DNA from: Escherichia coli | GTDB taxonomy: Bacteria > Pseudomonadota > Gammaproteobacteria > Enterobacterales > Enterobacteriaceae | Strand: one strand, 5' to 3' | DNA: 64,000 bases | Assembly: GCF_009931435.1 (NCBI RefSeq) | Contig: NZ_CP043414.1 | In this document: piece after piece, positions 41,960 to 53,807 of the stretch | Layout of the letters: each line of letters starts with the position of its first letter | Position numbering within the stretch: the first letter of the stretch is position 1 | Translations under genes and position numbers: made by a program | Notes under the pieces: generated by a model | What the model saw: the letters and a program-made list of their open reading frames with translations, nothing else | What the model was told of the DNA's origin: nothing | The model's database searches: none

Positions 41960-43120
41960 TTATGCCGGATCGACTGGTACCACATTCTCGCTTGGGTAAC
42001 AGCCCAGGACTTTCATCGAGCGAGTGATTTCACCTAGCTCTTTCAACGCCTGTTGCATTTCCGCTGATTCCAGATTGGCCTGAATATCCAGATAAAACAT
42101 CTCTTCCCACGGGTTTCCGTGAATCGGGCGTGATTCCAGACGGGTCATAATCAGATTGTGGTTGCGCAGTACCAGCAACGCTTCAACCAGCGCACCAGCT
42201 TGTTGTCCGGTCGCCATTAACAACGTCGTTTTCGCCGGAACCTGGTCAGAAACGTTAATGGCTTTACGTGCCAACACCACAAATCGGGTGAAGTTTTGTC
42301 GCTGATTCGCTTCAATATGCTCCAGTACCTGCAAACCGTACAAAGTGCCGCCAGCTTCGCTTCCCAACGCAGCAACATGCGGTGATTTTGCCTGTGCAAC
42401 CTTTTCCATTGCCGCAGACGTACTTTCGGTATATTCAATCTTCCAGTGCGGATAACGATTAAGGAATTTGCTGCATTGCTGGAATGGCTGCGGATGGCTG
42501 TAGACCGTATTAATGGTGGATAAATCAGTAGTGCCGGAGACCAACAAACAATGATCGATAGTTAACGTCATCTCGCCAACAATCGACAAACTGGTATGTT
42601 GCAGCAGATCGTAAACGTCGTTTATGGCACCGGAGCTGGTATTTTCAATCGGTACGACGGCATAGTCGGCCTGGCCGGTTTCCACCTGATTAAAAATATC
42701 GGCAAATTTGGCGCAGCCACTTTCAATGAATTGCTCAAAGTGACGCGCAGCGTACTGACGAGCGGCAAGATGTGAATAGGAGCCTTTGGGGCCGAGAAAA
42801 GCGATGCGTGCTGAGTGCGGATTAATTTTATTGAGATGTTGCTGGAGCAGTGCCTGCTGAGTTAATACGGAATCTTCAATGATGAGTTGGAACAGGCGAG
42901 TAATGTAATGGGCGTCCAGATGGTGCACTTTACCGAGCGTAATTAATCTTTCCAGCAAATCGCGTTCGCGATCAATATCACGTACCGGGCGATGAGAGAG
43001 CAGTTTGGCTTTTCCCACCTCGACGGCCAGTTCGCGCCGCTCTGCCAGTAATGCTAATAATTTTTCATCCAGCGCGCTGATTTTCTCTCGCAGCGCCAGT
43101 AACGGGTTTTCCGATGTCAT
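41960..43120 (-). CDS. pheA: Chorismate mutase / prephenate dehydratase (PheA)
   Basis: 386-aa product [40 protein letters not shown]... Confidence 0.97.
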
Positions 43121-43141
43121 AGTGTTGCCTTTTTGTTATCA

Positions 43142-43172
43142 ATAAAAAAGGCCCCCCGGTTTGGGAGGCCTT
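43142..43172 (-). terminator. pheL-pheA attenuator terminator
   Basis: GC hairpin plus U-tract (minus strand: ggcctcccaaaccggggggcc ttttttatt) between pheL and pheA. Confidence 0.8.
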
Positions 43173-43218
43173 ATTGTTCGTCTTCGCATTCTGTTTCACA
43201 CGACGAAACGCCTCCCAT

Positions 43219-43266
43219 TCAGGGGAAGGTAAAAAAGAATGCGAAGAAAAACGGCGTGTGTTTCAT
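43219..43266 (-). CDS. pheL: pheA leader peptide PheL (MKHTPFFFAFFFTFP)
   Basis: 15-codon ORF with seven Phe codons immediately upstream of the attenuator. Confidence 0.9.
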   Translation of the reverse strand: MKHTPFFFAFFFTFP

Positions 43267-43349
43267 GTTTGTTTCCTTAGGTGACTTCAGTACAGTACCC
43301 GTACTGTTTTCTCGCTGTCAACAAAAAACGCGCCCGAAGGTGCGTTGTA

Positions 43350-43396
43350 AAACCCACTGAATTCAATGTTTTCCCTTTGTTTTCAGTGGGTTTTGT
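43350..43396. repeat. 13-bp perfect inverted repeat AAAACCCACTGAA / TTCAGTGGGTTTT just downstream of int; third AAAACCCAC copy at 43424; candidate int terminator and/or att arm site
   Basis: Seen directly in sequence at the prophage-chromosome junction. Confidence 0.5.
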
Positions 43397-43433
43397 TATT
43401 GGTGGGGGTTACTGATTACCCTATAAAACCCAC

Positions 43434-44456
43434 TTATGTGGATGAAATGTGGATGCCTCCTTTTAACGGATTAAGTGAAATTGCATCCTGGAGGAAATCA
43501 GGAGCGAGGTGCGCATAGGTCATAGTTTGCTGGATCGTGGCGTGCCCCATAATTCGCTGGAGCGTAAGTATATTTCCTCCATTAATCATAAAGTGAGCAG
43601 CAAAGGTATGGCGTAGAACATGTACAGCCTGTCCTTTTGGTAGGTCTGGCTTAACACTGCGAAGCACCTTGCGATATTCCTCATAATTGACGTCAAACAA
43701 AAGGCCGGATTTCTTTGTTTTGATCTCACTAACAACTTCATCAGAGACAGGAATAATTCGAACTTTTCCGTTTTTAGTTTTGTTAAACGTCACGCGATTA
43801 TTGATGATGTGTTCCGCGCGCAGATTTTTCGCTTCTCCCCATCTCGCCCCAGTACTGAGACAAAGTAGCGTAATCCGCCGGGCATCACCGCTTACTGCAT
43901 CCAGTAATTTGGCGATTTCTTCCATGGTGAGATACGTCATTTCGGGTGATTTTCGTTTCAAAGAGGGGAGGGCGCGGAGCGGATTTTCTCCGTGAAATTC
44001 CCCGGCATTTGCCAGGAGTGTAAACATTCCTCCGAGATCCGACTCATCACGCCGAACAGTAGACTCTTTTACTCCCAAAGATAAACGGGAGCTTCGATAA
44101 GCGGCCATGAAACGAGCATTAATCTGGCTAACCCTTGGATCATTCATTTCTTTGATGATTTTTTTCAACCTGGTTAGAACGCCGTTAGCATATGGCTTAT
44201 TGCGTCCACCCAATTCCCACCATAACGGAAGCAGATCTGAGAGATGACGTTGCTCTGTTGGCTTTTCAAGCCATTCCTTATCGTGCATGTGGCTGAGAAC
44301 ATAACGCTCAAAGGCCACTGCATCTGCCTTTTTCTTAAAAATCCGCTGAATCCGACGTCCACTTCGGCCACGCGGTCTAACATCCACTTTATACCGTCCA
44401 CCATCGAGCGCTTTAATTGCCATTGGCAAGCCCTCCGGTGAAACGAGGAAAGACAT
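43434..44456 (-). CDS. int: Phage tyrosine integrase (P2-type)
   Basis: 340 aa; catalytic region ...HVLRHTFAAHFMINGGNILTLQRIMGHATIQQTMTYAHL (R-H-x-x-R...Y). Confidence 0.9.
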   Translation of the reverse strand: MSFLVSPEGLPMAIKALDGGRYKVDVRPRGRSGRRIQRIFKKKADAVAFERYVLSHMHDKEWLEKPTEQRHLSDLLPLWWELGGRNKPYANGVLTRLKKIIKEMNDPRVSQINARFMAAYRSSRLSLGVKESTVRRDESDLGGMFTLLANAGEFHGENPLRALPSLKRKSPEMTYLTMEEIAKLLDAVSGDARRITLLCLSTGARWGEAKNLRAEHIINNRVTFNKTKNGKVRIIPVSDEVVSEIKTKKSGLLFDVNYEEYRKVLRSVKPDLPKGQAVHVLRHTFAAHFMINGGNILTLQRIMGHATIQQTMTYAHLAPDFLQDAISLNPLKGGIHISST

Positions 44457-44489
44457 TTCCAGTTTGTAAAACGTAAGAATAATAAAGGG

Positions 44490-44792
44490 TTAGCCAATTT
44501 TCCTTTCGGATGGGGGTAAGTCCGTTGGCTCTTGCCCATAGTGTGCGAGAGCCGGAGCTATCTGCCCGGATTCAGGCGCAATTTTCCCAGTCATAAACCA
44601 CAACGCATATTTCTCAAATCTGGGGTTGTTTAGTATTTGCTCAATTACTTCAGCATTAGGGATAGTTTTACCGCTTTCATATCTCCACAGAGCATCACGG
44701 TTTAAACCAAGCATTTTTGCTGTATCCGGGAGGCTAGTAAGTCTCTCGCTTTCACGCATGATTTTTATGCGCTCTCCAATAGTCATACGCAT
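44490..44792 (-). CDS. Phage immunity repressor (C/CI-like, XRE-type HTH)
   Basis: Product MRMTIGERIKIMRESERLTSLPDTAKMLGLNRDALWRYESGKT; divergent from the cox-like gene. Confidence 0.75.
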   Translation of the reverse strand: MRMTIGERIKIMRESERLTSLPDTAKMLGLNRDALWRYESGKTIPNAEVIEQILNNPRFEKYALWFMTGKIAPESGQIAPALAHYGQEPTDLPPSERKIG

Positions 44793-44887
44793 GTTGCAAT
44801 TCTCCAACGTCTGTATTAATGTTTATACAAATGAGTTTGATTTGGGGCATCCGTCGCAAGAAATACCCCAAACAGGGAGATTATCAC
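44793..44887. promoter_or_regulatory. Lysis-lysogeny switch region (face-to-face repressor and early promoters expected)
   Basis: ~95-bp gap between divergent repressor and cox-like genes, as in P2/186. Confidence 0.5.
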
Positions 44888-45214
44888 ATGAATGAAGAAC
44901 TATTGAGGGCATTGTTTAAGATCCCAGACCCCATCACCGTCGATGAGTTTTCCCGCCGTACAGGTAAGACCGAATCAGCCGTAAGAAAGTTGGTAGAGCG
45001 TCGACTCATCCCTCTAACTACTGAGCGCGAGGTTTTAGGCGAGGAAGGGAGTTCGCGCCGTCTTCTCATCCTTTGGAATGAGTGGCTCGAAATGGTCTAT
45101 GACGCAACGAAACAGCTTCCTCCTGAGCGTAAAGATTGGCGCAATCACTGGCTTAAGAAAGCCAAGAAGCTGGCGGAAGATTTGGGATTAGGCTTTCTTA
45201 ATTTTGCTGCATGA
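44888..45214 (+). CDS. Cox-like early regulator/excisionase (putative)
   Basis: First early-operon gene, 108 aa, AGGGAG RBS; assignment mainly by position. Confidence 0.45.
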   Translation: MNEELLRALFKIPDPITVDEFSRRTGKTESAVRKLVERRLIPLTTEREVLGEEGSSRRLLILWNEWLEMVYDATKQLPPERKDWRNHWLKKAKKLAEDLGLGFLNFAA

Positions 45215-45232
45215 GATGCAGGGAGTTTTGAT

Positions 45233-45574
45233 ATGAAACAGCAACGTAATTCACGCTTTCGTAATGGTGCTGAACGCCACGCTAACCGTTTCGCTACCAG
45301 TGCATCACGCAGCAACATCCGCTACAGCCTGAGTGATACACACGCAACGCCGGATGGCTACCCAGTAAAACAAATCGGCGAGCACGCTTGGCTGATTGAG
45401 AAAGCTGGAATCGTGATCCACAAATGCCCACGCAATCCGTTTACCGGAAACCGCATTTTTGCATTGAGCTGTGGCGACAATCAGTTTGGGCAGGATTTCA
45501 CATTATACGAAGCACTTCGCACGGTTGATCGTCTGCTTCGCGGGCAAAGTTTTATTAAACAGGCTGATTTATAA
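45233..45574 (+). CDS. Hypothetical phage protein (113 aa)
   Basis: Early-operon ORF. Confidence 0.5.
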   Translation: MKQQRNSRFRNGAERHANRFATSASRSNIRYSLSDTHATPDGYPVKQIGEHAWLIEKAGIVIHKCPRNPFTGNRIFALSCGDNQFGQDFTLYEALRTVDRLLRGQSFIKQADL

Positions 45575-45584
45575 CGGGTGCTTT

Positions 45585-45872
45585 ATGACCAAAGACCATG
45601 CACAAGGTGTATTTATCCGCTTTATTGATTTTCGCGGTGAACTGTTATTACGTGCATCCGCTATTGACGGAGTGACTCCGGCGGGTAAAAACGGAGCCGA
45701 CGAAGCCACTTACGTTTATCTGAACGGCACGCGACTGCTTGTGGAACTTCCGTACCAGACCGTACGAGAAATCATTAGCGAAGCTGAAAAGGCACGCCAA
45801 GTTAATGGCGATGAACCCTATATCGAAATTATTTGTATGGATTCAGAAGCTGAAATACAGAAAGCAGATTAA
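45585..45872 (+). CDS. Hypothetical phage protein (95 aa)
   Basis: ATG at 45585 inside the longer ORF; early-operon position. Confidence 0.45.
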   Translation: MTKDHAQGVFIRFIDFRGELLLRASAIDGVTPAGKNGADEATYVYLNGTRLLVELPYQTVREIISEAEKARQVNGDEPYIEIICMDSEAEIQKAD

Positions 45873-45880
45873 AGGGCGTT

Positions 45881-46126
45881 GTGATGGGCAAAGAATATAA
45901 AACTCTCATTAACAAAGCACTTGAGCGTTTTTATTTTCGCTTAAGTGCATCAGGCGCTCATGCTGAACGTGCAGCCCGTGACTCATTGACCAGGGCAATC
46001 CGGAGTTTGTATGACGTCGCTTTTTACGCTGATGATCTGGATGCACTTAACGAACTTTCCGAGCTGATCTGTGCCGCAGAATGCGGGGAACATATTGAAC
46101 CGTATAAGCTGGGGAATATCGCATGA
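45881..46126 (+). CDS. Hypothetical phage protein (about 80 aa)
   Basis: Early-operon ORF. Confidence 0.45.
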   Translation: MMGKEYKTLINKALERFYFRLSASGAHAERAARDSLTRAIRSLYDVAFYADDLDALNELSELICAAECGEHIEPYKLGNIA

Positions 46127-46329
46127 GTATATTTATCTCATGGCTTGTTCTGATTATTTCGGTGGCCTGCGCCATTGGAATTATGCGAATTATTCATTCA
46201 GTAAAAAAGATTGAACGTTTTTTCACTGGTGAATAACGATACAAATAAAACATCAAATTAAATAAGAAAACGTGAAAACCATCCGTATTAACGGAGGTAT
46301 TCGCACACGCAAATAACGGAGATACAAAA

Positions 46330-46740
46330 ATGCACGCAAAAGAAGAAGGTATCATCAGAGCACTGAAAGAAATTTCAAAGACAGAAAACGAAGTAGCGAA
46401 AAAAGCCATAGCAAATAATCATATGGACGTCGCAACCCACACACTGATAGTCGCAAGAGTCACGGCAGAAGCAGCCGAAATTATCGCAAAACAGGATGCT
46501 GAACTGGCGGTTCTCAGAACACAACCAGTCACCGGACTGGATTTGTCTAACACCGGACGCCTTATTTACACAATTGGCTCGGAGCTACAGCGATACACCA
46601 TTATCGCCGGGTTACAGGATAAATACCTGATCACTCCTCACCCCATAAGGGAATCAGAAATTCTGACAAATCTCCGCCTGATAGAGCGCTCTCAAGTCGC
46701 ATTCATTGATGACGCACAGTGCACCGTATTTAACGCATAG
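46330..46740 (+). CDS. Hypothetical phage protein (136 aa)
   Basis: Early-operon ORF. Confidence 0.5.
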   Translation: MHAKEEGIIRALKEISKTENEVAKKAIANNHMDVATHTLIVARVTAEAAEIIAKQDAELAVLRTQPVTGLDLSNTGRLIYTIGSELQRYTIIAGLQDKYLITPHPIRESEILTNLRLIERSQVAFIDDAQCTVFNA

Positions 46741-46763
46741 AGTTACTGGACAAAGGGGGCGCA

Positions 46764-46967
46764 ATGGCAATTAAGCATTTTCCCGTCGTTCGCTTTACCT
46801 CCAGAGGGCGCGAATACGAGGTCGACGAACGCCTGATTACCACTATCGACAAACATCGTTCGGAAAAGGATGCACACCACATCTACCTCACTGACGGCAC
46901 TTACTTCTGCGCCACTAATGTGGCGCGGGTAAACCTTATCCGACAGGTACAGGAGCCACGCAGATGA
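46764..46967 (+). CDS. Hypothetical phage protein (67 aa)
   Basis: Stop overlaps next start (ATGA). Confidence 0.45.
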   Translation: MAIKHFPVVRFTSRGREYEVDERLITTIDKHRSEKDAHHIYLTDGTYFCATNVARVNLIRQVQEPRR

Positions 46968-47230
46968 CCATTCTGGACTACATCGCTACTCATCCGGGGT
47001 GTAGCGGCGGAGAGATCGCCGCAGCACTGAATACTCCAACCACAGCCATTAATGCTGAGTTACGCCAACTTTGGCGCGGCGGCTTAGTCATCAGAACAAA
47101 CCGCAGCACAGGTGGTCGCGCTCGCAAAACTGGAGGCCAGGCTTCTTACCACGTAAACCCGATGCCGTTCGGGTGTAGCAATCCACTTACTCACATGTTT
47201 AACCAGCTACTGAAGGAAGCCAGAACATGA
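46964..47230 (+). CDS. Hypothetical small protein, possible winged-helix DNA-binding (88 aa)
   Basis: Translationally coupled small ORF. Confidence 0.45.
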   Translation: MTILDYIATHPGCSGGEIAAALNTPTTAINAELRQLWRGGLVIRTNRSTGGRARKTGGQASYHVNPMPFGCSNPLTHMFNQLLKEART

Positions 47231-47526
47231 GCACCATCAACCACCAGAAGCTACGCGAACTGGCATTTGCCCTGCAACGAATGGCAACACCTCAAAAATT
47301 ACTGGCATTTCGCGCAATGCTCTCGCCGTCTGCTGTGCTGGCACTGCTGGATGAGCTGGAGCACGCCAGAACCATGGCTCCAGCCATTCGCCTGACGCTC
47401 CATCATGAAATCGCTGATTTCTGCGCACCACTGGGTTCGCCTGGTGAACCAGAAACGCCGGAAACAATGCAACGAGAGCTACTGCAACGCATCGACAAGG
47501 TTTTTGATTTTTTCCTTAACCAGTAA
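47227..47526 (+). CDS. Hypothetical phage protein (99 aa)
   Basis: Translationally coupled small ORF. Confidence 0.45.
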   Translation: MSTINHQKLRELAFALQRMATPQKLLAFRAMLSPSAVLALLDELEHARTMAPAIRLTLHHEIADFCAPLGSPGEPETPETMQRELLQRIDKVFDFFLNQ

Positions 47527-47537
47527 AGGACCGCGAT

Positions 47538-47750
47538 ATGAACAAAAAGACCTGGTTTCGCGCATACATGTGGGCGCTGGTATGCGTCCTCGTTTCTCTC
47601 ATTCTGTATGTGGGGCTACTTCCCAGAATGATTTCATCAGACAGCTCCTTCCTGGTATTGCTGGGCATTTTTGTCGCCTTGCTGTACCCGGCGGGCGTTG
47701 TTCGCTTTTTCAGTAACTACATCAAAGCAATTATGGAAACCAAACAATGA
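47538..47750 (+). CDS. Small membrane protein (70 aa, two hydrophobic helices)
   Basis: WALVCVLVSLILYVGLL and FLVLLGIFVALLYPAGVV segments; stop overlaps next start. Confidence 0.5.
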   Translation: MNKKTWFRAYMWALVCVLVSLILYVGLLPRMISSDSSFLVLLGIFVALLYPAGVVRFFSNYIKAIMETKQ

Positions 47751-48571
47751 AAAAACTATTACCACTCATCCCTCTCCTGATGACCACACTTCTGGTTGGC
47801 TGTGACCGCGTGGAGCCGGGCAATGTAGGCATCAAAGTCAACAAACTGGGCGACGATAAAGGCGTCGGTGAAGTAGTTGGCGTTGGCCGCTACTGGACAG
47901 GCTGGAATACAGAGGTTTACATCTTCCCGACTTTCAAACAAATGAAGACTTACGATGAGCCGTTCAACTTCCAGATGAGTGACGGCACAACCATCGGCTA
48001 TCACATCGGCGTGGCCTACAAAGTTGATCCATCCAAAGTTACCACTGTGTTTCAGACCTACCGCAAAGGCGTGGATGACATTACCGACACTGACCTGCGC
48101 CAGAAGATCGCCGATGCACTCAACCGACTGGCCAGCAAAATGACCACCGATAAGTTTATCGACGGTGGCAAGTCTGAACTGCTGGATTCAGCACTTAAAG
48201 ACATTCAGTCAGAAATGACACCTATCGGCATTCAGGTCATGAGCCTCTCTTATGTCGGTAAACCGGAATATCCGCCAACCGTTATCGACAGCATTAACGC
48301 CAAAGTCACGGCAAACCAGAAAACCCTGCAACGCGAACAGGAAGTCAAGCAACGCGAAGCAGAAGCCAACATGTTGCGCGCAGAAGCTGCCGGACAGGCT
48401 GATGCCATTCGCACAAAAGCCCAGGCTGAAGCCGACGCCATTCGTTTACGCGGTGAAGCTCTGCGCCAGAATCCCGGCGTTATGGAGCTGGAAGCAATCA
48501 ACAAATGGAACGGCACGCTGCCGCAATACATGACCAGCAACACCGCTGTTCCGTTTGTTCCGGTGAAGTAA
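47747..48571 (+). CDS. SPFH/band-7 (prohibitin/HflC-like) domain lipoprotein
   Basis: Lipobox LLVGC; central band-7-like region; C-terminal Ala/Glu/Gln-rich coiled coil (REQEVKQREAEANMLRAEAAGQADAIRTKAQAEADAIR). Confidence 0.65.
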   Translation: MKKLLPLIPLLMTTLLVGCDRVEPGNVGIKVNKLGDDKGVGEVVGVGRYWTGWNTEVYIFPTFKQMKTYDEPFNFQMSDGTTIGYHIGVAYKVDPSKVTTVFQTYRKGVDDITDTDLRQKIADALNRLASKMTTDKFIDGGKSELLDSALKDIQSEMTPIGIQVMSLSYVGKPEYPPTVIDSINAKVTANQKTLQREQEVKQREAEANMLRAEAAGQADAIRTKAQAEADAIRLRGEALRQNPGVMELEAINKWNGTLPQYMTSNTAVPFVPVK

Positions 48572-48577
48572 TTAAAC

Positions 48578-48623
48578 CCGGCCAGTGAAAATCGCTGGCC
48601 GGAGCAGTATCAGGATTTTTTTT
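48578..48623 (+). terminator. Hairpin (ccggccag-N9-ctggccgg) with distal T8 tract after the SPFH gene
   Basis: 8-bp perfect stem; U-tract starts 13 nt after the stem so terminator function is uncertain. Confidence 0.4.
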
Positions 48624-48741
48624 AGTATGCCGTTCTCACAAAAAAACCGCTTGCCATGCCGCAATCAGTCAGGTTACATTTCCGCTGCACCTCATAAAAC
48701 GGGTGCCGGGTTTCGCAGCCTGCTGACAACCAAAGCGCACA

Positions 48742-48761
48742 ACCGCGCCAGCGGTTTTTTT
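48742..48761 (+). terminator. Rho-independent terminator (accgc-gcca-gcggt + T7) in a non-coding gap
   Basis: Stem, tetraloop and U-tract; flanked by cgcaca/tgtgcg outer complement. Confidence 0.55.
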
Positions 48762-48802
48762 GTGCGTACTGTATTGCCACGTCTTTTTCGCACACGAATT
48801 AT

Positions 48803-48878
48803 GGCGGGGCGTACGGGGCCGACTTCGGTCGGGCCGGGTTCTTTGGTTGCCGGTACTGCGAACCCCGTACGTCTCGCC
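48803..48878 (+). ncRNA. Candidate structured RNA: 16-bp stem (14 Watson-Crick + 2 G-U on the plus-strand transcript) enclosing a UUCG-tetraloop hairpin
   Basis: ggcggggcgtacgggg pairs with ccccgtacgtctcgcc; inner ccgac-TTCG-gtcgg; the two G-U pairs would be C-A mismatches on the opposite strand. Confidence 0.35.
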
Positions 48879-48940
48879 ACCCACAGTTTCGCAGCTCTGG
48901 ATGGTGAGTTTTCAAAACTTACAACCAAAGAGGCTACACC

Positions 48941-49171
48941 ATGGCAAACCGCAAACAGCACCGCGCTATCGCGGAGCGTCGTCACATCCAGACTGAAATC
49001 AACCGCAGACTTTCCCGCGCATTCCGCGTCGCTAAAATCATGCACATCAATATGCTGCATGAGCGTAGCTGCGAACTTTCAAACCTCTACTCATCCGCTG
49101 TTTTCAGTTATCTGGCGGATGATCTGCGCGAGCTTCAGCAGCTCATCCAGCAGCAAAACAAACTCCATTAA
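48941..49171 (+). CDS. Hypothetical small basic protein (76 aa)
   Basis: ORF preceding the replication gene. Confidence 0.4.
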   Translation: MANRKQHRAIAERRHIQTEINRRLSRAFRVAKIMHINMLHERSCELSNLYSSAVFSYLADDLRELQQLIQQQNKLH

Positions 49172-49243
49172 TTCCTGTTCCGGGCCTTTCCTGCACCTTG
49201 CGGCGGGAGGCCTTCGCACATCTGTAACAAGAGGATTGCCGCA

Positions 49244-49609
49244 ATGATTCTCGCCAACGACTTTCTTGAATACCTGCTCAACACAGAGCGTGATCTTGCC
49301 GCTCGCGTGCGTGATCGTTATGACATGTACCTGAAATCCCTGCCTGTACCGCAGCTCGCTGACGGAAAGATTGTTATTGATGGTCGCTACATGATTGACA
49401 GCCACGAGGGAAATTACAGGCTTTCCCGCATTGAAGGTGGCACCCCGTCCGTTATTGGCATTTACCAGCGCCCATCCTCTGCAATCGTCGATGTGATTGC
49501 CGACAGCATCCGCATCACACATCGCCATGCCGACACAGAAGACACCGTGCTGGAAATTCAGCGGCTGGCTACAGTCTGCCGCGACACCCTGAATGGCATG
49601 ACGAAGTAA
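49244..49609 (+). CDS. Hypothetical phage protein (121 aa)
   Basis: ORF immediately upstream of rep. Confidence 0.5.
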   Translation: MILANDFLEYLLNTERDLAARVRDRYDMYLKSLPVPQLADGKIVIDGRYMIDSHEGNYRLSRIEGGTPSVIGIYQRPSSAIVDVIADSIRITHRHADTEDTVLEIQRLATVCRDTLNGMTK

Positions 49610-49615
49610 ATCACT

Positions 49616-52438
49616 ATGACGGCAGAGTACATCAGGGACTGGCAACAACCGCGCCACGCAGTGGGGCGTGAAGGAACGGGGATCCCCGCTCCTGAATCCG
49701 CGCTTTCCTCCTGGCTGGATGCCTACCGGGTAGAGAACGAGCGCCGCCAGGAAATGGCTGATGCGGCGTTCTCCGCCACGCCGCTGGGCAACCTGATTAA
49801 TAAAAGCCTGGACGCACAGGAAAAACAGGACAAAACCATCACACTGGCAGGAGACGCCAGAAAACAGGCACGCGGCGCAGTGGATGAAGCCATGACCTCG
49901 CTGCGCCTGCTGCCGTCCTATCTGCGCGATCCGCTTATTCGCCACCTCTCCTTCCTGCGCAAAAAACAGGAAGCCGATCGCCGGAAAGGCAAAAAGAGCT
50001 GGCAGGCGGAACGCTATGCACGCGGAACCCTGCGCAAAATATTCGAACGTCTGGACCGCACCGATCACCGCTGGCTGACACCGGGTTATCGCTCCCTTGC
50101 CGGACGCGAACGCCTGGACGATTTGCTTTACCTGCCGCAGCTCAACAAACACCAGATACAGACGCTGGCCACCATGACGGCGGCGATGTTCAGCAGCACC
50201 TTCGAAAAACTCTGCGATGGCTTTGGCGCGACTGATGGCGAACTGACCATGGATGTAACGCTGAAGGCGTATCAGATGCTGGCCCGCATGGCGTTACACC
50301 TGCACGCCATGCCTCCACATTATGACGCACTGACAACAGACAAAGACCGGAGGAACGAACCGGACACAGAGCTGCTGCCGGGCGCAATCCTTCGCCTGAC
50401 CTGTGCGGAATGGTGGAAACGCAAACTGTGGCTGTTACGTTGCGAGTGGCGGGAAGAACAACTCCGCGCCGCCTGTCTGGTTTCCAGAAAAACATCGCCC
50501 TATCTGAGCCAGGACGCGTTAAGCGAGTTTCGCGCACAGCGCGAGAAAACACGCGATTTCCTGAAAAGTTTCATGCTGGAAAACGAAGACGGGTTCACGA
50601 TTGATCTCGAGACAGTGTATTACGCGGGAGTAAGTAACCCGGTTCACCGTAAGGCAGAAATGATGGCCACCATGAAGGGACTGGAACTTCTGGCCGAAGC
50701 CCGTGGCGACAGAGCGGTGTTTCTGACTGTCACCTGCCCGTCAAAATACCACGCAACAACGGAGAACGGTCATCCGAACCCCAAATGGAACGGGGCCACC
50801 ATGCGCGACTCCAGCGATTACCTGGTTAACACGTTTTTTGCGGCGGTCCGCAAAAAACTGAACCGCGACGGCCTGCGCTGGTATGGCATCCGCACGGTGG
50901 AGCCTCACCATGACGGCACCGTGCACTGGCATATGATGGTCTTTGCTCATCCGGAAGAAATCGACAGCATCGTGGCCATCACCCGCGATATTGCCATTCA
51001 GGAAGACCGCCACGAGCTGGGCAATGATATTACTCCGCGCTTTAAAGTGGAGTATGTCGACGGCTCAAAAGGCACACCAACCAGCTATATCGCGACCTAC
51101 ATCGGGAAAAACCTGGACAGCCGCGCCGTGGATGGCATCGACCCGAAAACGGGCAAACCACGCGTTGACCACGAAACCGGAAAGTCAATGGCCGAGAGCG
51201 TGGAACGCGCCATCGGCTGGGCGCGCCTTCACCGTGTCCGCCAGTTCCAGTTCTTTGGTATCCCCTCCCGTCAGGTGTGGCGTGAACTGCGTCGCCTTGC
51301 CAGCCAGATGGCACGCAACCCGGAAGGCCCGCAACAGCTGAAGGATGACGCAATGGATGCGGTACTCGCTGCCGCTGATGCCGGATGTTTTGCCACCTAC
51401 ATAGAGAAACAGGGCGGCGTTCTTGTTCCACGCAAAGACTACCTGATTCGCACCGCCTACGACCTCGCAGATGAGCTGAACGATTACGGCGAACAGAGCG
51501 TACAGATTTACGGGATCTGGTCGCCACTCATCGGGGAATCCTCCCGTGTGTGCACGCATCCGGATAACTGGAAGCTGGTAAGACGTAAACCGGAAACGGA
51601 AGACAGCGCCCGCGAAAATGGTTTTGACCTTCAGGGCGGCCCTGCCGCCCCTTGGACTCGTGGCAATAACTGTCCCCGTGTACAGGAAACGGACAACAAC
51701 GGGACAGAACAGCCGGAAGAACGGCCAGCACCGTGGCCGCAGCTTCCTGACAGCGTTGACGTGAATGAATGGATGCGCTCACTGAAACGGCACGAACGCC
51801 GGGCGCTGATGCGTTCGCTGCGTGACAAACAGGCAAAAAACAGCAGTGATGAAATGCAGAACTGGACACAGAGCCGCAAACAGCCACGGCCTTTGCCTGA
51901 TAACCACGAGTTACTCGCTAAAGAATGGCGGGAGTCTGCTGAATCTCTCGGCCTGCATATTGGTGAACAGCAGATGCAGCACCTGTTACGGGGCGGCAGT
52001 CTGTACGTTGACGGCAGCATCATTGCACCGCAGGGATTTGAAATTGTACGCAAACCGGATACCCGCCCGGACAGCCGAATCACGCAGCTCTGGCAGCGCC
52101 TGAGCCGTAATCACGGCGTAAGCAGCACGGGGATCCGCCATAACCCGGTCGCCAGCTATCTGGAACAGCTGGGGGCATCAGACCCCGAAGCCGCCGCACG
52201 CCTGGCATCCACACTTCAGCAGGACCAGAACACCATGAAAACCCCCGTTACCGTGCTTTCTGACATGCTGCGCGCCATCCGTGACGCAGAGCACGCACAG
52301 AGAATCAGTGAAACAACTGAACGCGCCCGCCGCAAAGCAGACCTGCTGCGGGGTGGCCTGACCAGTGGAAACAAAAAACAGACAAAAACAGGATTCACAA
52401 ATCCCGTAAATGAGCAAAAAACGCGCCGTGATATATGA
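49616..52438 (+). CDS. Phage replication initiation protein (P2 gpA-family rolling-circle endonuclease), 940 aa
   Basis: HUH-type motif region VEPHHDGTVHWHMMVF; position after the early operon. Confidence 0.8.
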   Translation: MTAEYIRDWQQPRHAVGREGTGIPAPESALSSWLDAYRVENERRQEMADAAFSATPLGNLINKSLDAQEKQDKTITLAGDARKQARGAVDEAMTSLRLLPSYLRDPLIRHLSFLRKKQEADRRKGKKSWQAERYARGTLRKIFERLDRTDHRWLTPGYRSLAGRERLDDLLYLPQLNKHQIQTLATMTAAMFSSTFEKLCDGFGATDGELTMDVTLKAYQMLARMALHLHAMPPHYDALTTDKDRRNEPDTELLPGAILRLTCAEWWKRKLWLLRCEWREEQLRAACLVSRKTSPYLSQDALSEFRAQREKTRDFLKSFMLENEDGFTIDLETVYYAGVSNPVHRKAEMMATMKGLELLAEARGDRAVFLTVTCPSKYHATTENGHPNPKWNGATMRDSSDYLVNTFFAAVRKKLNRDGLRWYGIRTVEPHHDGTVHWHMMVFAHPEEIDSIVAITRDIAIQEDRHELGNDITPRFKVEYVDGSKGTPTSYIATYIGKNLDSRAVDGIDPKTGKPRVDHETGKSMAESVERAIGWARLHRVRQFQFFGIPSRQVWRELRRLASQMARNPEGPQQLKDDAMDAVLAAADAGCFATYIEKQGGVLVPRKDYLIRTAYDLADELNDYGEQSVQIYGIWSPLIGESSRVCTHPDNWKLVRRKPETEDSARENGFDLQGGPAAPWTRGNNCPRVQETDNNGTEQPEERPAPWPQLPDSVDVNEWMRSLKRHERRALMRSLRDKQAKNSSDEMQNWTQSRKQPRPLPDNHELLAKEWRESAESLGLHIGEQQMQHLLRGGSLYVDGSIIAPQGFEIVRKPDTRPDSRITQLWQRLSRNHGVSSTGIRHNPVASYLEQLGASDPEAAARLASTLQQDQNTMKTPVTVLSDMLRAIRDAEHAQRISETTERARRKADLLRGGLTSGNKKQTKTGFTNPVNEQKTRRDI

Positions 52439-52514: not shown

Positions 52515-53474
52515 ATGAAAATTTGTATCGACGACGGATCCACCAACATCAAGCTGGCATGGACTGAGAACGGCGAACGCCGCAACGCCATCAGCCCGAA
52601 CAGCTTCAAGTCAGAATGGTCTGCGCCGTTCGGTGGCACGCAGCCCGCGAACTACATGCTTGATGGCGTGCGCTATGGTTTTGATCCGGTCAGCGATCGC
52701 TTTGTCCAGACGACCGACACGCAATACCAGTACAGCGATGTGAATGTCATTGCCATTCATCATGCGCTGGTCAAATCAGGCATCACGCCACAGGAGGTGG
52801 ATGTGGTTGTCACCCTGCCACTGAGCGAGTATTTCGACACAAACGCACAGCCGGACATGGCCAACATCAACCGCAAAAAAGCGAACGTTATGCGCCCGGT
52901 GGAGTACCAGAACGGCGAGGCATTCACTATCCGTAACGTGCGGGTTATGCCTGAATCCATTCCGGCTGGCTTTAAAGCACTGGCTGACATGAGTCCGTTT
53001 GAATCCCTGCTGATTGTGGATTTGGGCGGAACCACGCTGGATGTGGCAAAGGTTCAGGGGCAACTGGCAGGTATCAGCCAGGTGTTTTGCGATCCACACG
53101 TAGGCGTTTCCCTGATGGCCGATGCCGTACTGTCGGTAATGGCCACTAACGGTATGCGCACCAGTCACCACATCGCCAATACCATTATCGAACATCGCCA
53201 CGATGAAGCCTGGCTGCGCCAGCACATCCACAATAACGCACATTACGCCAGCCTGATGGCTGTTATTCGTGAAAAGGAAGAAACACTGAAACAACGCGTG
53301 ATCCGCGCGCTGGCGGGTTTTTCGGGTTACGGGCGGGTGATGGTTGTAGGTGGAGGGGCAGAGATTGTGGCACCCGCTATCCGCGAAGCCTGCGGAGTTA
53401 ATGCGACTTTCATCGCGGACGGGGTGCCACAGTTTGCTCTGGTTAATGGGCTGTACGCAATGGACAAGGAGTAA
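52515..53474 (+). CDS. parM: ParM/StbA actin-like segregation ATPase
   Basis: Colinear similarity to plasmid R1 ParM: IDDGSTNIKL, ISPNSFK, YSDVNVIAIHHAL, RKKAN, VMPESIPAG, LLIVDLGGTTLD, GGGAE, LVNGLY. Confidence 0.85.
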   Translation: MKICIDDGSTNIKLAWTENGERRNAISPNSFKSEWSAPFGGTQPANYMLDGVRYGFDPVSDRFVQTTDTQYQYSDVNVIAIHHALVKSGITPQEVDVVVTLPLSEYFDTNAQPDMANINRKKANVMRPVEYQNGEAFTIRNVRVMPESIPAGFKALADMSPFESLLIVDLGGTTLDVAKVQGQLAGISQVFCDPHVGVSLMADAVLSVMATNGMRTSHHIANTIIEHRHDEAWLRQHIHNNAHYASLMAVIREKEETLKQRVIRALAGFSGYGRVMVVGGGAEIVAPAIREACGVNATFIADGVPQFALVNGLYAMDKE

Positions 53475-53478
53475 ATCA

Positions 53479-53793
53479 ATGACGACACCAACCAGACGGA
53501 TAAGTTTCTATCTGAAGCCCGCCGTCGTCAAGAGCGAACGGGAGGCGTGCAGTTACCTCGACAGCCTGCCAGCCTCCGAACGCAGCCGCGCACAACGCGC
53601 GGCTTTTCTGGCCGGACTGGCTCTTATAAAACGCACCCCCGCGTTGGCGTATTCGCTGGCAGAATGGTCAGAAGACGAAATACGGATGCCACCGCTACCA
53701 GTACAGCCTGAAAAACCGGCGCAACCAGCAGCAGACAGCGCCCCCCATATGCAGCAGGTGAAAAAGAATATTCAGGCGTTTTTCCCGAAGTGA
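53479..53793 (+). CDS. parR: ParR/StbB-like centromere-binding protein
   Basis: N-terminus RRISFYLKPAV...SYLDSLPASERSRAQRAAFLAGLALIKRTP resembles R1 ParR; immediately follows parM. Confidence 0.7.
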   Translation: MTTPTRRISFYLKPAVVKSEREACSYLDSLPASERSRAQRAAFLAGLALIKRTPALAYSLAEWSEDEIRMPPLPVQPEKPAQPAADSAPHMQQVKKNIQAFFPK

Positions 53794-53807
53794 AAACAGG
53801 AGTAACT

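Follow-up and report, generated by a model that had tools for sequence, protein, structure and literature searches.

What do the small genes encode that are packed between the cox-like gene and the replication gene of a P2-family prophage, and do they work as one unit? We examined this question in a window of 64,000 nucleotides from Escherichia coli (assembly GCF_009931435.1, contig NZ_CP043414.1), where an earlier note, made from the letters alone, had marked an array of eight small early genes at positions 45233-47750. We label the genes of this array p1-p10, after an open reading frame (ORF) listing of positions 42000-52000. It forms the first, promoter-proximal stretch of the early lytic operon in a P88-like prophage (Xuanwuvirus, P2 family) that lies beside pheA-pheL. 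Comparison of gene content among related loci shows a seven-gene backbone (p1-p4, p6-p8) that is typical of the P88-like genus, together with two fixed insertion points that carry optional cargo.

A P88-like early operon with a backbone and two insertion points

The array can be identified as the start of a P88-like early operon beside pheA because an annotated copy is 99.9% identical, because the region resembles P88, and because an Rfam match to a Phe leader at 43142-43267 agrees with a pheL neighbourhood. The region 44400-49700 (5.3 kb) has 99.9% DNA identity to chromosomal prophage regions in six listed complete E. coli genomes. At least 80% of it is present in 74 of 5426 complete E. coli genomes, and it is partly present in 1678 of them. 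Identity to Escherichia phage P88 is ~92% over 76% of the region, and reaches 94-96% for other P88-like phages, which make up the genus Xuanwuvirus of the family Peduoviridae (the P2 family); P88 gp04-gp16 align with all early proteins of the prophage. In the RefSeq annotation of a 99.9% identical copy, the order is tyrA, pheA, pheL, an integrase, a helix-turn-helix (HTH) repressor (Pfam HTH_31), the cox-like gene and ten array genes at the same coordinates, followed by an 'ash family' pseudogene, two small genes, the replication endonuclease, ParM, and P2-type late genes up to raiA. Near-identity and gene order alike—a divergent integrase/C repressor, a cox-led early operon ending in A, P2-type late genes—are those of Peduoviridae and of Xuanwuvirus. 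The array had been assigned to the P2-family early region between cox and rep, and this assignment holds, with a cox-like gene upstream and the replication endonuclease gene A downstream. The product of the cox-like gene is a 'hypothetical protein' in the RefSeq annotation of this prophage; other strains have it as a Cox family protein.

To describe the variation of the array we used 80 IMG/VR loci that encode a relative of p1, of which 56 span the distance from p1 to A and provide the occurrence counts. Genes p1-p4 are found in all 56 loci, p6 in 55, p8 in 53 and p7 in 51. By count, p5 (26 loci) and the pair p9 and p10 (17 loci, always present or absent together) are optional. The optional genes occupy exact insertion points with conserved sequence on both sides. 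Slot A lies between p4 and p6: when it is empty, the spacer is a conserved 87 nt, and when it is filled, it holds either p5 or an 87-aa gene (phrog_21900), with '...GGTATTCGCACACGC' immediately before the insert and the p6 ribosome-binding site immediately after it. The two alternative genes of slot A show no significant similarity to each other (E=0.071). Slot B follows directly after the p8 stop and precedes the conserved 'ACACAAAAAAACCGCTTGCC' that opens the RNA region; it is empty, or contains p9-p10, or contains a 183-aa HTH protein (phrog_323). Both slots are occupied in the prophage studied here, A by p5 and B by p9-p10. A further replacement affects the backbone itself: 7 loci have, in place of p7 and the first half of p8, a short ORF in which p8 survives only as its C-terminal half.

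The p4-p6 spacer contains a conserved hairpin of five base pairs, a short way upstream of the point where slot A cargo is inserted (Table 1). Pairing is kept through a double change, TCCGT/ACGGA versus TCCGC/GCGGA, which makes this a compensatory change. The hairpin resembles a terminator facing against the operon, since a T-rich tail with a terminator-like score is found on the minus strand only.

The locus by itself matters little: it is a common, already annotated phage early operon, its genes are catalogued in public genomes, and all but the 37-aa gene belong to catalogued families. The division into backbone and swappable parts is of more use, as a map that sets the strongly constrained p1-p4 and p6 against p5, p7 with the N-terminal part of p8, and p9-p10. 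An experimenter can read from it where deletions should begin in a search for essential early functions, and which genes are worth a screen for host-directed or counter-defence activity.

Gene content and selection

The ORF positions within 45233-47750 are borne out by the ORF listing and by the RefSeq calls in the 99.9% identical prophage. Of the genes counted earlier as eight, p1-p3 and p5-p9 all stand, but a ninth, p4, with 37 aa and one transmembrane helix, had been overlooked. The start of p2 is most likely the ATG at 45585 (95 aa) and not the GTG at 45471 (133 aa); the annotation does not use the longer GTG frame, which overlaps p1. The start of p3 is the ATG at 45884 (80 aa). Neighbouring genes are separated by spacers of 10-23 nt or joined by 4-bp ATGA overlaps, apart from one gap of 93 nt between p4 and p5, which is slot A.

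Table 1. Features of the early region and their positions in the window
Feature	Position	Strand	Remarks
cox-like gene, first of the early operon	44888..45214	+	Pfam Phage_Cox E=1.3e-5, 25.3 bits (below cut-off of 27.5); 28% identity to P2 Cox
p1, 113 aa	45233..45574	+	DUF4761, basic N-terminal tail; backbone gene
p2, 95 aa	45585..45872	+	phrog_3800; backbone gene
p3, 80 aa	45884..46126	+	DUF4754; backbone gene
p4, 37 aa, predicted single-pass membrane peptide	46123..46236	+	annotated in RefSeq and P88 ('membrane protein'); backbone gene
Conserved 5-bp hairpin in p4-p6 spacer	46282..46295		TCCGT-ATTA-ACGGA here, TCCGC-ATTC-GCGGA in most relatives
p5, 136 aa	46330..46740	+	optional cargo, slot A
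p6, 67 aa	46764..46967	+	phrog_3459; backbone gene
p7, 88 aa, MarR-type winged helix-turn-helix	46964..47230	+	PF12802, phrog_1687; backbone gene
p8, 99 aa, Ead/Ea22-like N-terminal motif	47227..47526	+	phrog_4144; backbone gene
p9, 70 aa, two predicted transmembrane helices	47538..47750	+	phrog_1130, labelled 'membrane protein'; optional cargo, slot B with p10
p10, 274 aa, SPFH/Band 7 lipoprotein	47747..48571	+	PF01145; cargo of slot B; outside the range of the earlier note
isrK-like RNA	48687..48761	+	Rfam RF01394, 65.9 bits (cut-off 50)
C4 antisense RNA	48797..48884	+	Rfam RF01695, 87.1 bits (cut-off 45)
Replication endonuclease A	49616..52438	+	35% identity to 186 A, 31% to P2 A; RefSeq 'replication endonuclease'

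We aligned the codons of each gene in the 80 IMG/VR loci to the copy in the window and calculated the ratio of non-synonymous to synonymous polymorphism (pN/pS). The values are 0.09 for p1, 0.24 for p2, 0.15 for p3, 0.21 for p4, 0.50 for p5, 0.15 for p6, 0.30 for p7, 0.24 for p8, 0.26 for p9 and 0.09 for p10. By this measure all ten genes are under purifying selection and are real protein-coding genes, including the 37-aa p4. Every array gene has a PHROG or Pfam family with the exception of p4, which matches nothing.

Several public alleles of p2 encode 104 aa, some of them from NCBI genomes. They carry frameshifts at differing positions that lead into one shared alternative frame ending in ...LMAMNPISKLFVWIQKLKYRKQIKGRCDGQRI. 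The same frame is also open in the window (45739-45900): it may have coding value, or else p2 can do without its C-terminal 25-30 residues.

Overlapping junctions and expression

Stop-start overlaps had been reported at 46964, 47227 and 47747, and all three are ATGA overlaps; a fourth at 46123 had escaped attention. The overlaps of 4 bp join p3 to p4 (46123), p6 to p7 (46964), p7 to p8 (47227) and p9 to p10 (47747), so that the last of them does exist, but connects p9 to the 274-aa SPFH gene beyond the range originally described. A purine-rich, Shine-Dalgarno-like run precedes each ATGA start by 6-12 nt, and every start in the array has one. The overlaps are kept in related loci: p3/p4 in 78 of 79, p6/p7 in 66 of 66 and p7/p8 in 63 of 63. 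The p9/p10 overlap is seen directly in 6 of 26 loci, whereas the other 20 carry a 276-aa allele of p10, for which an overlap would follow from a presumed start 6 nt further upstream. The same ATGA junctions are found in P88.

ATGA overlaps are not significantly commoner in the array than in other parts of the prophage: 4 of 10 array junctions are 4-bp overlaps, against 5 of 28 same-strand junctions elsewhere (Fisher p = 0.21). Real and conserved as they are, such junctions are ordinary for a P88-like prophage. The tight spacing is consistent with coupled translation; an overlap preceded by a ribosome-binding sequence is found in each pair, and conservation is found for the first three junctions. 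A simple promoter scan identified no convincing internal promoter in the array.

Backbone proteins

The earlier statement that none of the genes has a recognisable function needs some correction after the family searches: p7 is of MarR type, p1 and p3 belong to DUF4761 and DUF4754, p8 has an Ead/Ea22-like motif, and p9 is a membrane protein that pairs with an SPFH lipoprotein. The assignments of p1 and p3 cover the whole profile. The match of p1 to PF15958 (DUF4761) scores 231.5 bits against a cut-off of 27 and spans profile positions 1-105 of 105, and that of p3 to PF15946 (DUF4754) scores 181.7 bits against a cut-off of 27 and spans positions 1-80 of 80. Among 1.84 billion proteins p1 has 21 representatives, mostly fragments and too few for a useful alignment. 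A short form of p1 (68 aa) closely follows cox in the Salmonella phages SEN4/SEN5 and the Enterobacter phage phiT5282H, where a neighbouring gene is annotated 'cell division inhibitor'. Matches of p2, p5, p6 and p9 are limited to PHROG families of unknown function.

The two remaining assignments are partial. Residues 2-53 of p7 match PF12802 (MarR_2) at 29.1 bits, marginally above the cut-off of 27, and the match to PF01047 (17.0 bits) is below its cut-off of 24.6. Full-length MarR regulators have ~140 aa, with N- and C-terminal dimerisation helices. As p7 has only 88 aa and only its helix-turn-helix part is matched, it is better called a stand-alone winged-helix protein. The match of p8 to PF13935 (Ead/Ea22-like) scores 21.8 bits, below the cut-off of 27, over 24 of 139 profile positions, which leaves p8 outside the family; over the first ~45 residues its identity to Ead/Ea22-like proteins of lambdoid phages is 55-64%, and only this N-terminal motif is common to them. 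We searched 50,697 phage records for the nine small proteins with tblastn and found p1-p6 confined to P88-like phages. By contrast, p7 (43% identity) and residues 1-76 of p8 recur in Stx1/Stx2 lambdoid phages at 43-47% identity, and p9 recurs in P1-like phages.

A shared '...YLxxGT' pattern had made p2 and p6 candidate paralogues, which was rejected (BLASTP E=0.85, profile-profile probability 0.5%). Both p6 and p7 match phrog_19053, and a search with the concatenated pair for a natural p6-p7 fusion retrieved only frameshifted or chimeric metagenome calls.

Structure prediction, proposed in the earlier note for each ORF, was run for p2 and p5, and produced confident models but no significant match to a known fold. 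The model of p2 is confident and suggests a PH-like fold. That of p5 (AlphaFold2, 37-sequence alignment) has a mean predicted local distance difference test score of 78.7, with a confident helical hairpin at residues 3-64 and a less confident small beta domain at residues 77-126. On these models, both folds would be generic binding scaffolds, to which no function can be given.

The p9-p10 pair

The SPFH assignment of p10 is clear, at 108.3 bits against a cut-off of 23.6 for PF01145. Its sequence starts with MKKLLPLIPLLMTTLLVGC-D, in which we read a lipobox, LVGC, with Asp at position +2. Under established sorting rules Asp at +2 of a lipoprotein signals retention in the inner membrane, facing the periplasm. 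From the lipobox and its Asp, p10 is predicted to be retained in the inner membrane and to face the periplasm. Two hydrophobic helices can be read from the sequence of p9, and one from that of p4. We found no sign that p9 is an NfeD partner of the SPFH protein: it has no Pfam NfeD match at E<=0.1, and its 70 aa are too short for the NfeD soluble domain. Close relatives of p10 are found in other types of phages, with 97% identity to a lipoprotein of a P1-like phage and 95% to a 'serine protease' of Stx2 phages, where p9 is absent.

Accessory factors or functions that the genus needs

We consider it likely that the array is one unit, a P88-like early operon made of backbone and cargo that encodes mostly accessory factors. 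The common strand, the short spacers, the Shine-Dalgarno-like runs and the conserved overlaps speak for a single unit. Once the C-type repressor is lifted, a single mRNA would start from an early promoter in the repressor-cox spacer, a location suggested by the spacing and by established knowledge of the P2-type switch. At the p3/p4, p6/p7, p7/p8 and p9/p10 junctions a terminating ribosome would restart on the next gene, and the members of a pair would be made together. As a small winged-helix regulator p7 would bind DNA, p4 and p9 would insert into the inner membrane, and p10 would be a periplasm-facing, inner-membrane-anchored SPFH scaffold that works with p9. Protein-binding adaptors may be found in p2, with its predicted PH-like fold, in p5, with its helical hairpin and small beta domain, and in p8. 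The least certain step, in which we have low confidence, is that most array proteins would be early accessory or host-directed factors and not core replication proteins. This step is suggested by the swappable units, which are common to lambdoid and P1-like accessory regions, by the absence of several of them from apparently intact relatives, by the lack of similarity to any early gene of P2 or 186 beyond cox and A, and by the dispensability of one of them in P1, where plp was nonessential in a genome-wide CRISPR interference screen (PMC10695390).

Several observations weigh against this account. The occurrence of p1-p4 in all 56 loci, under strong constraint, indicates that these four genes could be essential, in replication or in the lysis-lysogeny decision. 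A promoter scan of the C-cox spacer scored no early promoter under its criteria, and the single mRNA and the ribosome restart are proposed from spacing alone. The overlaps say nothing specific to the array, since they are no commoner here than in the late genes. The fold matches of p2 are below significance, and a Foldseek search with p5 against PDB and BFVD returned no match at E <= 1e-3, the weak ones being SH3, Tudor, KOW and Hfq-like barrels. With fold matches of p2 and p5 below significance, the term 'protein-binding adaptor' says scarcely more than what shape the models have.

Functions that the genus needs, which could include replication help or lysis-lysogeny control, are best sought among p1-p4 and p6, which are invariant and strongly constrained. 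An alternative to accessory factors is that these backbone genes encode the replication accessory proteins of the genus, functional analogues, dissimilar in sequence, of P2 gpB (the lagging-strand helper) or of other partners of the A nickase. They are located upstream of A and in the same orientation, as are B and orf80-83 in P2; p1-p4 are universal and constrained, and no other B-like candidate is present between cox and A. Weak local similarities connect p3 with the C-terminal end of P2 B (E=0.007, database of 21 proteins) and p12 with P2 orf81 (E=0.005), but they are not significant at a realistic database size. The former is the best match in a BLASTP comparison of the array proteins with all P2 and 186 early proteins, which produced nothing significant; homology to the early genes of P2 (orf78, B, orf80-83) and 186 (cII, fil, dhr, orf80-84) is rejected beyond cox and A. 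The earlier note had named homology to standard P2-family replication accessory genes as the result that would overturn its reading, and none was found in this comparison. The backbone proteins also have no replication-related match in Pfam, NCBIfam or PHROG, and the annotation of 186 calls its small early ORFs not essential, so that not every P2-family phage needs a B-like protein. We regard a replication role of this kind as rather unlikely.

Another possibility concerns the cargo, above all p5, which could encode anti-defence or inter-phage competition factors in an early-expressed slot. The gene is optional and occupies a fixed insertion point that is able to hold an alternative gene. Its named sources are Escherichia, Shigella and Citrobacter only, its sequences form 89 clusters at 90% identity, and its N-terminal half, which contains the hairpin, is mosaic, with a repeated LNLSDTG linker in E. 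albertii. Its pN/pS is the highest of the array, and 186 has the host-directed genes fil and dhr at the same map position. However, p2 is likewise split into 107 clusters, many of them fragments, with named sources among enterobacterial genera only (Escherichia, Citrobacter, Salmonella), and cluster diversity alone is therefore not diagnostic. No solved structure is similar by sequence or fold: a sequence search of the nine small proteins against every PDB chain returned no match. PADLOC-DB 2.0 contained no match to the ten proteins better than E=0.007, which places none of them in a defence family, and NCBIfam yielded nothing useful for the small proteins. A literature search found no paper that mentions DUF4761, DUF4754 or the RefSeq accessions of six array proteins. 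The data neither support nor exclude an anti-defence role for array genes, to which we give a low probability.

In its most extended form, this possibility would make slots A and B a third, early-expressed cargo hotspot of the P2 family beyond the two known variable loci, with p5 as a counter-defence or inter-phage competition factor that has no known relative. Two variable loci occur in P2-like phages, but the one analysed in E. coli lies between A and Q and not between cox and A (PMC9122126). We consider the proposal of a third hotspot quite improbable.

A separate explanation applies to slot B. The pair p9-p10 could be a lysogenic-conversion or superinfection-exclusion module that is expressed from the prophage, outside the early lytic programme. 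As optional cargo, the cassette moves between P88-like, P1-like and Stx phages. Its products are envelope proteins, like many exclusion factors, and at its 3' end it has a hairpin of its own with a T run behind it (48578-48620). Against this, the start of p9 is 11 nt past the p8 stop, which leaves no room for a promoter in the spacer, and 9 related loci have a 4-bp overlap between the two genes. The promoter scan scored none upstream, PADLOC gave no match, and the literature search found no paper tying prophage SPFH proteins to phage defence. Expression as such a module appears doubtful.

Finally, the idea that the small ORFs are chance open frames or over-annotation, to which the length of several of them (37-70 aa) and the lack of a known function for most could lend some credit, has practically no probability left: a pN/pS of 0.09-0.50 throughout, with many synonymous differences, we count as already refuting it, starts, stops and overlaps are kept in dozens of loci, and all but p4 match existing families at E 1e-21 to 1e-75.

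RNA elements and neighbouring regions

Downstream of the array, positions 48674-48940 between the SPFH gene and the gene of a 76-aa 'derepression protein' (48941-49171) contain the two RNAs of Table 1 and a weak c4 target element; this is the 'ash family' pseudogene of RefSeq. In related loci, a stretch of 9-10 nt in the RNA (here CTTTGGTTG) co-varies with its complement, which is found both upstream (ACAACCAAAG) and across the site where ribosomes would bind the derepression gene. The arrangement looks like RNA control of an antirepressor of the P1 c4 or Gifsy-1 IsrK type, possibly with several specificity types.

Two further observations concern the remainder of the window. Directly after A, at 52515-53800, the RefSeq annotation of the identical copy has a ParM-type segregation ATPase and a 'plasmid partitioning/stability' gene, which fall within the A-Q region, a known cargo hotspot of P2-like phages. 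Positions 1-24000 of the window have a G+C content of 0.30-0.55 in 1-kb windows, well below the ~0.50 of the rest, which suggests another horizontally acquired island.

Comparison with known systems

The array has counterparts in several systems, among them the SPFH proteins HflK/HflC, which modulate the FtsH protease. The SPFH domain and the coiled region following it are common to p10 and HflK (E=5e-4, PDB 7vhq/7vhp), and p10 would face the periplasm as they do. It differs in a predicted lipid anchor in place of a transmembrane helix and in the lack of an HflC-type partner, and the similarity is very low; in NCBIfam p10 has only weak HflK/HflC matches (TIGR01932/01933), far below their cut-offs.

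In Stx1/Stx2 lambdoid phages, genes for a MarR-type winged-helix protein and a protein with an Ead/Ea22-like N-terminus lie in a same-strand run between cI and xis-int, and in Stx2 phages the 95% identical SPFH lipoprotein is encoded in that region as well. These phages belong to another family and the genes to another operon, with an extra gene between the p7- and p8-like genes, and p9 is absent.

In P1-like phages the gene of a two-helix membrane protein overlaps that of an SPFH lipoprotein (plp), as p9 overlaps p10. The pair is located among tRNA genes near dmt and a DnaB-like helicase gene, and not in an early operon. Between the window (47747-48571) and a P1-like phage locus (L089, 2477-3521) the mature lipoprotein is 97% identical, but its membrane partner only 48%, and the signal peptides differ. 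This suggests a recent exchange of the lipoprotein body alone between a P2-family prophage and a P1-like phage.

P2 (cox-orf78-B-orf80-83-A) and 186 (apl-cII-fil-dhr-orf80-84-A) have short, tightly packed or overlapping genes at the same map place and in the same orientation, between Cox/Apl and A. The flanks are homologous to those of the array (28% identity for Cox and 31-35% for A). P2 carries the replication helper B at this position, while 186 carries cII, the cell-division inhibitor fil and the host replication inhibitor dhr. The array has none of B, cII, fil and dhr, nor the DksA-like zinc finger, DUF2732 and DUF5405.

In P88 (NC_026014, gp03-gp16) the order of genes from cox to A is the same, and the array proteins are 76-100% identical to gp04-gp12. 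Slot A is empty in P88, which does not have the p5 cassette; otherwise it does not differ from the array.

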